64,000 nt of DNA, taken from assembly GCF_001677475.2 (NCBI RefSeq), contig NZ_CP015229.1; one strand, given 5' to 3'. Of this stretch, positions 5,796 to 11,036 are shown in pieces. The notes under the pieces are model-generated. The model had not been told where the DNA came from. It did not search any database and saw only the letters and a list, made by a program, of their open reading frames with translations. The stretch is from Escherichia coli (GTDB lineage: Bacteria; Pseudomonadota; Gammaproteobacteria; Enterobacterales; Enterobacteriaceae). The translations under genes were made by a program, and so were the position numbers. Positions within the stretch are counted from its first letter, which is position 1, and each line of letters begins with the position of its first letter.

Positions 5796-8700
5796 TTAAA
5801 GTGATTTACGGCAGGCGGTCAGTTGGGGGCTGGAATCAGCGTCGCTTCCGGTCATACCGGTTAGCATCTGCACATAGTAGTGCCGATTGTAATCATCAGA
5901 TTCACTTGTCCAGTAAGCTCCCGGTGTAAATTGCGAATTACTGGAAAACGCTCCAACGTTCCCCCATTCACCATACAGTGATCCCTGCGTGCGTTTGTTT
6001 TCGCCAGACGTCAAATGTGTGATGCCAGGAAGATTATATCCATCATTTTTAGCATGACAGAGCGCATTGGCAGCTAGCCAGATATTGGTATGATTTCCAT
6101 TATTCACCCACCAGCCTTTCAGCTTAATTAAGGTCTGGTAGGTTGTACCTCCTTGTCGGGGAATAGCGCTTATTGTGACTGACGTTTGATCGCCGATATT
6201 TGCGAAAGAAACTTTACCCGAAGCATCGACAGACACCCAACCCTGTGAACTTGAAAACATATAATCATCAACGGTTTTACCCGCTTCAAAGTTATCATTG
6301 TTGAGTGTGTAATACGCCCCTGCAAAGCCTTCGCTCGGGAATTTAGCCGTGGAGAAGGTATGGTTGTTTGCAGTGACATGACCGGACATTTCTTTTATCG
6401 AGTGGATGAGATTCAGCGATACGCTTAAGTTTGCCTGATGAACCCCGTTCAGCATGGGAATGAGTGTCGCTGTTCCCTCTTTTCCGCCAGTGACAGTCAC
6501 GGTGTACTCGCCATAATTTCTTTGACTGTAATCAATATCGCTCAACTTGAGAAAGTTCACGAAGGGACCTGACTGGACAAATTCCAGATGATCAGACGTC
6601 ACTATCGGGTTACCGTACTTGTCTTGCAATGTTAGCGTAAGTTTCGCGCTATGCTGGTAGTCAGCCATCAGAGTGCCAACGTCGGATTTCAATAATGACT
6701 TACTTTCATCCGCCGTGCTGGCAAGCAAGGTAATAGCTGCGGATTGGTTGGCTGTACCAGGAACTTGCACATTGACTGTTAAAGTTTCTGCCAATGTACT
6801 GGTTATTGTCGCCGTGACTTGCCCGGATTGATCGGTACGCGTAGTTGGAATATTAACTACCGGGCTGCCTTTGGTGTCTAAGGCATAACGAACATCGACA
6901 CCTTCAACCGGGAATCCGTAATCATCTTCTACTCGTGACGTGACGGTGCTGCTATCGATGCCGTCGGCGGTTATGGTGTCAGGAGAGGCCACGACGCTCA
7001 CAACATGTGCCGTTTTAGCATCTGCCTTAACCGCAACCGTTACCTGGCTCTGAACGGGAACATCTTTGCCCATTGTGGCCGTAACGGTATAGACATTCAC
7101 TTTGTCACTGGTCAGCGTCACTTTGGCCTGACCAGACTGGTCAGTAAGGACTTCCCCTGAATTGCTTAATGTTGCACCTTCAGGCGTTACGCTAAAGGTG
7201 ATAATTTGCCCAGGCATCAATTCATCCCGCGCATTTCTCGCCGTTGCGGTCAGCGTAATACCCTCACTGTTATGGACCGTGGTTTCTGCCTTCGATGATG
7301 TTAACTCGAGCTTGCCATTTGCCACATTCACGTCAACCTTACTACTACTATTATTGTCCAGCGTTGCCGTCACCTGATAAACCCCTGGCTGGGTGCTAAT
7401 AAGGTTAACGTACGCGTAACCGTTATTATCAGTGTAAGCCGTATCGCCTATCGTAATGTTAGCTGTTGGCTGCGCACTTAATCTGACGCGTTGACCCGCT
7501 ATTACATTGTTAAACGCGTCCTGGACGAGTATCCGTAGCGTGATGTTTTCGCCAACCGTTATCGTTTTTTCGGCTCCGGTTATACTTATTACCTTCGCCG
7601 AACTTTCATCCGGGAGCACTGATAAACTAAACGTTTTATTATCGGAGGGTTGCGCTTTCCGGCTCACCACTACGTTATGTTGTCCGGCAATATTGCTGGT
7701 CATTGTTACCGTCGCCTGACCCAGCGTATCGGTGGTGACTTCTGTTCCGCTTAGAGCGACATCGTTACTCTGGAAAGTGACCAGCTGGTCTTTAAGCGGA
7801 TTTTGGTAAGCGTCCAGGAGCGTTGCCGTCAGGGTACTCCCCGTACTGTTACCCGCAACAATGGTATTTAATGAGGCAGTCAGCGGCTGGAGCTGCGCAC
7901 TGTTTGTATCCCCAATAAAAGTGACTTGCTGATGAGCAACGGTATTATTTCTGGTCAGCGTCGCCGTAACTGTAAACTCACCCGCTTTTGTACCTCGCAA
8001 TGTGACCACGGCATCGCCGTTTGCATCGGTGCGGGCGGTTTCACTACTTAGCGTGAAGTTCCCGGTCATGGAGGCTGGCAAGGTAAATTTCACATCCTCA
8101 TCCGGCAACGGGTGTCCATACACATCTTTCACACTGGCTGTCAGGATAACGGTATTTGTATTGTTAGCGATCGCACTGCCTGACCCGGCATTTAAGGTCA
8201 TTACCGATTGTTCCCTATTTGGGACCACGGTGATCGTGACCGACTGGTGAATATTTTTATCCGCCTCAAGCGAGGCATCGACGGAATAGCTACCAGCTTT
8301 TGAACTGGTCAGGTGCACTCGCACAATACCGGACTGGTCTGTTGTGGCGATCGAGTTGTCCAGTTGCGAGCCACCAGGTGCCACAAAATTCACTTTCATA
8401 TCTTTTAACGGGTTGTTATGAAAGTCTGTGACGGTGGCGGTCAGAGTACTGCCCTGACTGTTGCCAGCAATAATGGTATCTGGATCGGCAACCAGTTGTT
8501 TGAATTTTGGCGTACTCGAATCGCTAACGAATTTCGCAATTATCCGTTGTGAGAAACCATTTGGCAGCGTGGCACTGATCGTATTTTCTTCCGCAACCTG
8601 ACTTACCATATTGATTGTGGCAACACCGTATGCATCCGTTTTTTGCTGCGGTGGTTCGACAAATTCAGCGCTTCCTTTTTCATTCTTAAAGGTGACCTGA

Positions 8701-11036: not shown

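Follow-up and report, generated by a model that had tools for sequence, protein, structure and literature searches.

Sequence analysis of an Escherichia coli inverse autotransporter gene identified as iatD and of the divergent block around it

Genes and features at the iatD locus

The stretch of Escherichia coli DNA analysed here (contig NZ_CP015229.1; 64,000 nucleotides, hereafter the window) contains a large gene between kptA and yjiJ that we identify with high confidence as iatD, the gene for IatD, an adhesin of the inverse autotransporter class (type Ve secretion). The open reading frame (ORF) runs on the minus strand from an ATG at position 11036 to a stop codon at 5796-5798 and comprises 1746 codons with zero internal stops. 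On one side it is convergent with kptA (5091-5675, plus strand), and on the other it is preceded by yjiJ (11247-12425, minus strand), which is oriented in the same direction. In the genome of MG1655, kptA ends at 4,561,484 and yjiJ at 4,561,497, leaving 12 bp between the two genes and no iatD. An initial annotation of the window, made from the letters alone, had described a single ORF of 1746 residues at this site and had stated that kptA lies directly next to yjiJ in K-12. Both statements hold, and the ORF is uninterrupted and aligns to the type IatD protein with 0 gaps. The features of the locus are collected in Table 1.

Table 1. Features of the iatD locus, domains of the encoded protein and segments of the surrounding block, with their positions in the window
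Feature	Position	Strand	Basis or result
iatD coding sequence	5796..11036	-	Intact ORF, 1746 amino acids (aa) plus stop; 97.8% identity to SMS-3-5 IatD
Shine-Dalgarno-like GGAAGG	11042..11047	-	5 nt upstream of the iatD ATG; read from the sequence
Predicted extended Sec signal peptide, residues 1-45	10902..11036	-	Kyte-Doolittle hydropathy and AXA rule, inspection
Periplasmic LysM-fold domain, residues ~68-118	10683..10835	-	Homologues, AF2 model, Foldseek
Inverse autotransporter (IAT) beta-barrel with linker, residues 148-430	9747..10595	-	Pfam IAT_beta PF11924, PDB barrels
First post-barrel module, residues 431-535, at the position of intimin D00	9432..9746	-	NCBIfam intimin alignment
Immunoglobulin (Ig)-like array, residues 537-1539	6420..9428	-	Pfam, self-hidden Markov model (self-HMM)
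Invasin-D4-like Ig domain, residues ~1547-1651	6084..6398	-	Pfam Invasin_D4 E=1.5e-4; AF2; Foldseek
C-type-lectin-like tip, residues ~1652-1746, with Cys1660/Cys1742	5799..6083	-	AF2, Foldseek
Hairpin AAGGATACCCT-(6 nt)-AGGGTATCCTT, 11-bp stem	5753..5780		Between convergent kptA and iatD; read from the sequence
Block of ~10.3 kb, iatD-positive versus iatD-negative E. coli	5644..15985		blastn against K-12-like locus
Left flank	up to 5643		97.5% identity to K-12-like locus (blastn)
Left part of block	5644-11268		No match to K-12-like locus (blastn)
yjiJ-yjiK	11269-13329		80.65% identity to K-12-like locus (blastn)
Right part of block	13330-15985		No match to K-12-like locus (blastn)
Right flank	15986-23069		95.4% identity to K-12-like locus (blastn)

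The integrity of the gene is supported by several lines of evidence. Among the 120 best database matches, 119 encode proteins of 1746 aa and the remaining one a protein of 1747 aa. Tandem Repeats Finder found no DNA tandem repeats within iatD, and the Ig repeats of the protein are 16-34% identical to the first repeat, so that mis-assembly by repeat collapse or expansion is of no concern. The ratio of nonsynonymous to synonymous substitution frequencies (dN/dS), calculated pairwise against three other alleles, was 0.10-0.21 for the whole gene and 0.035-0.056 for the barrel, values that show purifying selection on iatD.

Scans with consensus patterns for promoters and terminators gave no enrichment over shuffled sequence. 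The hairpin in the 120-bp gap between kptA and iatD is possibly a terminator; as it has no T-run, the consensus scan for terminators did not detect it. The same gap contains a sequence resembling repetitive extragenic palindromic (REP) elements, GCGCAGCACATCCGGCA, at 5700-5732.

Identification and distribution of IatD

IatD was named and characterised from strain SMS-3-5, in which the 5,241-bp gene has the locus tag EcSMS35_4876 (Goh et al. 2019, mSphere, PMC6714894). In that study, orthologues were grouped if they had more than 75% identity to the group reference over at least 80% of its length (PMC6714894). The protein encoded in the window is identical to EcSMS35_4876 at 1707 of 1746 positions (97.8%) over 100% of its length and thus belongs to the IatD group. 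The exact window protein is available from NCBI as "inverse autotransporter IatD" (for example ANO92251.1) and is encoded on 21 contigs. When 5,426 complete RefSeq E. coli genomes were searched with megablast, genes in the identical kptA-iatD-yjiJ arrangement were found to be annotated by RefSeq as "iatD: inverse autotransporter IatD". The position between kptA and yjiJ is shared by the window, SMS-3-5, N3, isolate 362 and O157:H7. Because of the full-length identity, the common chromosomal slot and the NCBI name of the exact protein, we assign the gene to the IatD group, and we found no contradiction to this identification. The initial annotation had suspected membership in one of the described E. 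coli inverse autotransporter groups, which it left unnamed; the group is IatD.

At least 80% of the length of iatD was present in 638 of the 5,426 complete genomes, roughly 12%. All of the 120 best database homologues are IatD proteins from E. coli or Shigella with 97-98% identity. No close relatives of IatD turned up when 100,044 species-representative genomes were scanned with patterns from the passenger, although the exact 8-residue patterns used may miss orthologues below about 85% identity.

The gene is thus already known, having been named and partly characterised in 2019, and for a catalogue of the window it resolves to a named gene that requires no further discovery effort. IatD is of modest relevance: E. 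coli has several adhesins that have received little study, and IatD, whose carriers include the phylogroup-F strain SMS-3-5, is among them. In our literature search, iatD was mentioned only by Goh et al. (2019) and in a table of one review. Beyond the 2019 paper, the analysis adds the linked block of ~10.3 kb, the apparent lack of the integrin-binding aspartates in the tip and the frameshifted copy in O157:H7, all of which are described below.

Domain architecture

The initial annotation had proposed a protein of the intimin/invasin type, built from a signal peptide, a LysM domain, an inverse autotransporter beta-barrel, a long array of Ig-like repeats and a C-terminal lectin-like domain. The features of a signal peptide are present by inspection and hydropathy, and include a polar N-terminal extension, the basic residues K23, R25 and R26, a hydrophobic core at residues 27-42 and the triplet A43-T44-A45 in front of Q46.

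LysM was absent from the Pfam results for IatD itself and from the precomputed Pfam lists of IatD homologues, and Pfam gave no match to Intimin_C in IatD. Since neither domain was recovered by Pfam on the protein's own sequence, we turned to homologues and structure for LysM and to sequence and fold searches of the PDB for the tip. The search of the closest database homologues yielded near-identical IatD alleles only, and a representative search with the N-terminal 246 residues was used instead to gather diverse relatives. We aligned 72 homologous segments. Residues 60-125 of IatD gave a partial, sub-threshold match to the Pfam LysM profile (E=0.011), while 56 of the 72 segments, which come from other inverse autotransporters, matched it at E<=0.001. 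An AF2 model of the segment, calculated from these aligned sequences (predicted local distance difference test, pLDDT, of 86), has beta-alpha-alpha-beta topology, and its top Foldseek matches in the PDB were LysM domains, including the periplasmic LysM of intimin (2mpw) and that of MltD. The proposed LysM domain is thus confirmed by fold and by transitive homology, with the refinement that it is too divergent to be recognised by Pfam on the IatD sequence.

The barrel was recognised at E=7.7e-109 by the Pfam profile IAT_beta (PF11924), of which positions 2-279 of 279 were aligned, and it matched the PDB barrels of invasin (4e1t, E=1e-81) and intimin (4e1s, E=3e-67). The initial annotation had made its reading depend on a domain search for this barrel, and the search found it. 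As is typical of an inverted topology, the barrel at residues 148-430 precedes the Ig array and the tip at residues 431-1746.

Positions 173-549 of the NCBIfam intimin model align to residues 152-530 of IatD and thereby cover the module that directly follows the barrel. No similarity was detected between residues 432-535 and the Big_1 repeat profile with hhalign, and the module gave a weak match only to the Ig repeats of RTX adhesins. The array itself consists of nine Big_1/Invasin_D3 repeats at residues 540-629, 746-835, 847-935, 946-1038, 1052-1135, 1151-1238, 1244-1334, 1347-1436 and 1448-1539. Their Pfam E values range from 6.5e-8 to 4.9e-19; the ninth matched chiefly Invasin_D3 (E=3e-10). 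All nine scored E=1e-28 to 1e-34 against the self-HMM. A degenerate Ig-like module at about residues 641-745 was detected weakly, by comparison to the FdeC structure 4e9l (E=0.0024) and with hhalign (E=4.6e-4). Altogether, the passenger contains about 12 Ig-like modules, including the D4-like one, which agrees with the repeat array anticipated in the initial annotation.

The last 207 residues align to domains D4-D5 of invasin (1cwv) at E=7e-10 in a pairwise phmmer comparison. An AF2 model of this region, based on 24 homologues, had a pLDDT of 94.9 and was all-beta to model residue 112 and mixed alpha/beta thereafter. Foldseek ranked invasin 1cwv first (E=7e-13, template-modelling (TM) score 0.81), followed by intimin 1f00 (TM 0.65) and snake-venom C-type lectin-like proteins. 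Cys1660 and Cys1742 were invariant across the 24 homologues and are putatively the conserved disulfide pair of a lectin-like cap. Alignment, model and fold search thus agree with the lectin-like C-terminus that had been proposed; the Intimin_C profile, which the initial annotation had suggested for a domain scan, gave no match. Taken together, the barrel, the inverted topology, the Ig-like passenger, the LysM fold and the lectin-like cap confirm that the protein is an inverse autotransporter of the intimin/invasin type.

Integrin binding by invasin requires Asp911 in D5 and the synergy residue Asp811 in D4. In the pairwise phmmer alignment these correspond to Asn1664 and Ala1564 of IatD. Judged from this alignment, the integrin-binding aspartates appear not to be conserved in the IatD tip, although a shifted equivalent in the adjoining Asp1665 is conceivable.

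A divergent block around iatD

The initial annotation considered the gene accessory relative to K-12. This stands insofar as iatD is absent from K-12, but the difference is not a clean insertion of one gene. Instead, a multi-gene haplotype of ~10.3 kb has been replaced, comprising a 3' extension of kptA, iatD, divergent alleles of yjiJ and yjiK and a gene for an EspX6-like protein. The left breakpoint falls exactly at the position of the kptA stop codon in K-12, and KptA has 194 aa in the iatD-positive haplotype versus 184 aa in K-12 owing to a C-terminal extension of 10 residues (5644-5675). Compared with its counterpart at the K-12-like locus, KptA is 98.9% identical, YjiH 99.1%, YjiJ 89.5% and YjiK 83.9%. 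The identity of yjiJ-yjiK to the window has two separate modes among the complete genomes, with at least 95% in 636 of them, about 81% in 4,739 and no genome in the interval. The window type of yjiJ-yjiK is linked almost perfectly to iatD, its 636 genomes nearly matching the 638 that contain iatD.

The remaining gene of the block, at 13602-15575 on the minus strand, has a low GC content (~0.31-0.39) and is absent from K-12. It encodes a pentapeptide-repeat protein of 657 aa that is 80% identical to an O157:H7 protein called "T3SS effector pentapeptide repeat protein EspX6" by RefSeq (T3SS, type III secretion system), and it shares both block and strand with yjiK, yjiJ and iatD. Near its 3' end, at 13695-13848, there are at least 5 head-to-tail copies of a 24-nt unit encoding 8-residue repeats of the type DKQANDST. 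The length of the EspX6-like protein varies among strains (657, 680, 696 and 729 aa), probably through changes in the copy number of this repeat. A repeat search at the block borders found no flanking direct or inverted repeats, no mobility genes and no mobile-element signature.

The linkage invites the speculation that iatD is part of a co-inherited module of ~10 kb on one strand, consisting of the espX6-like gene, xenologous yjiK and yjiJ, and iatD, which may have entered, or been retained, as a unit from a deeply diverged source. Under this scenario the tip, apparently without the aspartates for integrin binding, would have a specific ligand in the host or the environment. We regard the scenario as a whole as rather unlikely.

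The O157:H7 copy and the wider window

In the one O157:H7 genome examined, that of H6437, iatD (L008:5501-10742) is annotated as a frameshifted pseudogene. An insertion of 1 nt creates a run of eight C residues (C8) at codon 59, and a stop codon follows at codon 67. The corresponding site in the window is at 10851-10869, where the sequence reads CCGCCCCC and stays in frame. The kptA gene beside iatD in H6437 is likewise frameshifted.

With regard to the window as a whole (1-64000), identity stayed at or below ~97.7-98.4% for every part of it in comparisons with the 5,426 complete RefSeq genomes of E. coli, the core genes tsr and opgB included. The exact IatD protein is nonetheless present on the 21 public contigs, and the source lineage seems to be poorly represented in, or left out of, the collection. 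Positions 25001-45000 contain a hypervariable restriction region with a type I restriction-modification system of the EcoAI family and a gene for a GmrSD-type endonuclease; symE is close by, and the hpa operon comes next. An element within this segment is repeated with a median of 22x per E. coli genome and is presumably a REP or an element of the insertion sequence type.

Function and alternative explanations

IatD from SMS-3-5 was localised to the cell surface by immunofluorescence and caused strong formation of biofilms upon expression in a K-12 flu mutant under induction with isopropyl beta-D-thiogalactopyranoside (IPTG), while its overexpression led neither to autoaggregation nor to binding of extracellular matrix (ECM) proteins (PMC6714894). 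A review from 2020 gives the function of IatD simply as "biofilm formation" (PMC7312957).

From domain homology and the intimin/invasin paradigm we infer the following mechanism. The predicted extended Sec signal peptide would direct IatD to the periplasm, where the divergent LysM-fold domain would remain and probably tether the protein to peptidoglycan. The N-terminal barrel, expected to be 12-stranded, would be inserted in the outer membrane, and the C-terminal passenger would be threaded outward through it as a hairpin. Sequential folding of the passenger would then build a rod, about 12 Ig-like modules in all, that would hold the invasin-type D4 domain and the C-type-lectin-like tip far off the cell surface, where the tip could capture its ligand.

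Several observations weigh against IatD acting in this manner. The biofilm phenotype was obtained solely by overexpressing the gene with IPTG in a K-12 host (PMC6714894). The consensus scan revealed no promoter above chance upstream of the gene. The cleavage site of the signal peptide is putative, having been placed by hydropathy and inspection. Lastly, the LysM segment, sub-threshold in Pfam, reads GALES in place of the G-x-G-E-T motif of the family; in view of this motif and of the failure of Pfam on the protein's own sequence, we treat peptidoglycan binding by IatD as putative.

The alternative that deserves most weight, with a probability only somewhat short of even, is that iatD is intact but cryptic: it would be silenced under ordinary conditions in the manner of H-NS and would make no contribution unless a specific signal de-represses it. 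That the sole reported phenotype of IatD was obtained on overexpression is consistent with such silencing, as is the regulation of other members of the family, since the related adhesin FdeC is regulated by H-NS according to the reference list of the 2019 paper and iatB responded to LeuO (PMC6714894). The 210-bp region upstream of iatD is AT-rich (44% GC in 11001-11500) and gave no promoter match above chance, and a frameshifted iatD is tolerated in the O157:H7 lineage. Against this reading speak the dN/dS values of 0.1-0.2 in every domain and the essentially invariant length among the 120 best homologues, which suggest sufficiently frequent use of the protein for selection to act on it. Silencing in the laboratory is moreover compatible with a niche-specific function, and a cryptic gene would therefore refine the explanation of IatD as a biofilm-promoting surface adhesin rather than replace it. 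A decaying pseudogene, or an artefact of annotation or assembly, is a different matter. Large repetitive adhesin genes are frequently mis-assembled and the O157:H7 allele is frameshifted at its C8 run, but the window copy is uninterrupted, has the length of the type allele and of nearly all of its best homologues, is in frame at the site of the O157 frameshift, contains diverged Ig repeats instead of DNA tandem repeats and evolves under purifying selection. For the window copy this explanation is refuted.

Two further alternatives concern the ligand. IatD could be an invasin of the Yersinia type, with a D4-D5 tip that attaches to beta-1 integrins and induces host cells to take up the bacteria. 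The tip has its best structural match in invasin D4-D5, is similar to it in sequence and has retained the cysteine pair. Yet its identity to invasin is 23%, both integrin-binding aspartates are replaced in the pairwise alignment, and ECM proteins were not bound on overexpression of IatD (PMC6714894), an assay that is not direct for integrin; we consider integrin-mediated invasion improbable. Still less credible, and in our view very improbable, is that IatD is a variant intimin with a tip that binds Tir delivered by a T3SS. The intimin model aligns with the barrel and the D00 region of IatD, the tip resembles 1f00 and the gene 80% identical to that of the effector EspX6 is located in the same block, 2.6 kb from iatD. 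However, the score against the intimin model (364.7 bits) is far under its cut-off of 1400, Pfam did not match Intimin_C, and the passenger has roughly double the length of the intimin passenger. The neighbours of iatD are kptA, yjiJ, yjiK and the espX6-like gene, with no tir, cesT or other genes of the locus of enterocyte effacement (LEE) flanking it.

Comparison with known inverse autotransporters

For comparisons within E. coli we used the YeeJ, IatC and FdeC proteins of SMS-3-5. YeeJ is 49% identical to IatD overall (barrel 87%, N-terminal/LysM region 62%, passenger 39%, tip 44%) and is the closest characterised paralogue. IatC follows with 44% overall (barrel 76%, N-terminal/LysM region 63%, passenger 34%, tip 29%). 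For FdeC the overall value is 32% (barrel 58%, passenger 24%), and there was no alignment in the N-terminal/LysM region or the tip.

None of these proteins or the other named families accounts for the gene. An assignment to YeeJ was rejected on account of the 49% identity, which extends over residues 12-1541, and the different locus, given the grouping threshold of more than 75% over 80%. Against the NCBIfam model for IatC (NF040978), IatD scored 1134.6 bits with a cut-off of 2400, whereas a true IatC (P0139) scored 2927.7. The model for SinH (NF033423) gave 302 bits versus a cut-off of 999, the intimin model NF033627 was missed as stated above, and the curated NCBIfam cut-offs for Ilp and YrIlm were likewise not reached. 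Two close relatives that at first appeared to be unnamed (P0135 and P0136) proved to be variants of YeeJ when compared with SMS-3-5 YeeJ. FdeC, YeeJ, intimin and SinH, the comparisons suggested in the initial annotation, are relatives of the protein, and none of them is IatD.

IatD of the window resembles that of SMS-3-5 in being the same gene with the same 5,241-bp length, position between kptA and yjiJ and domain order. It differs by 39 amino acid substitutions, located mostly in the Ig array and the tip, and nothing points to a functional difference. YeeJ shares the plan of LysM, barrel, Big_1 array and lectin-like tip, and both YeeJ (Martinez-Gil et al. 2017, cited therein) and IatD promote biofilm formation on overexpression (PMC6714894, PMC7312957). 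Unlike IatD with its 1746 aa, however, YeeJ has 2358 aa, and its gene is located elsewhere, near tRNA-Asn genes. IatC has the same architecture as IatD, the N-terminal 840 residues of which align to the IatC model.

Among the more distant relatives, FdeC (EaeH) and SinH of Salmonella share with IatD the IAT barrel and an Ig-like passenger, and the FdeC structure 4e9l matches Ig modules of IatD. A LysM domain and a lectin-like cap with a disulfide pair are features of large inverse autotransporters, LysM not being universal. Intimin (Eae; 4e1s, 1f00, 2mpw) resembles IatD in its periplasmic LysM, IAT barrel, D00-like first module and lectin-like tip, whereas IatD has a much longer passenger and lacks the LEE/Tir context. 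Invasin of Yersinia (1cwv, 4e1t) has a homologous barrel, the same fold of D4 and C-type-lectin-like D5 in its tip and the cysteine pair. Its passenger has four Ig-like domains before the tip in contrast to the approximately 12 modules of IatD, and the two tips have diverged in sequence and apparently in the aspartates that invasin uses to bind integrins.

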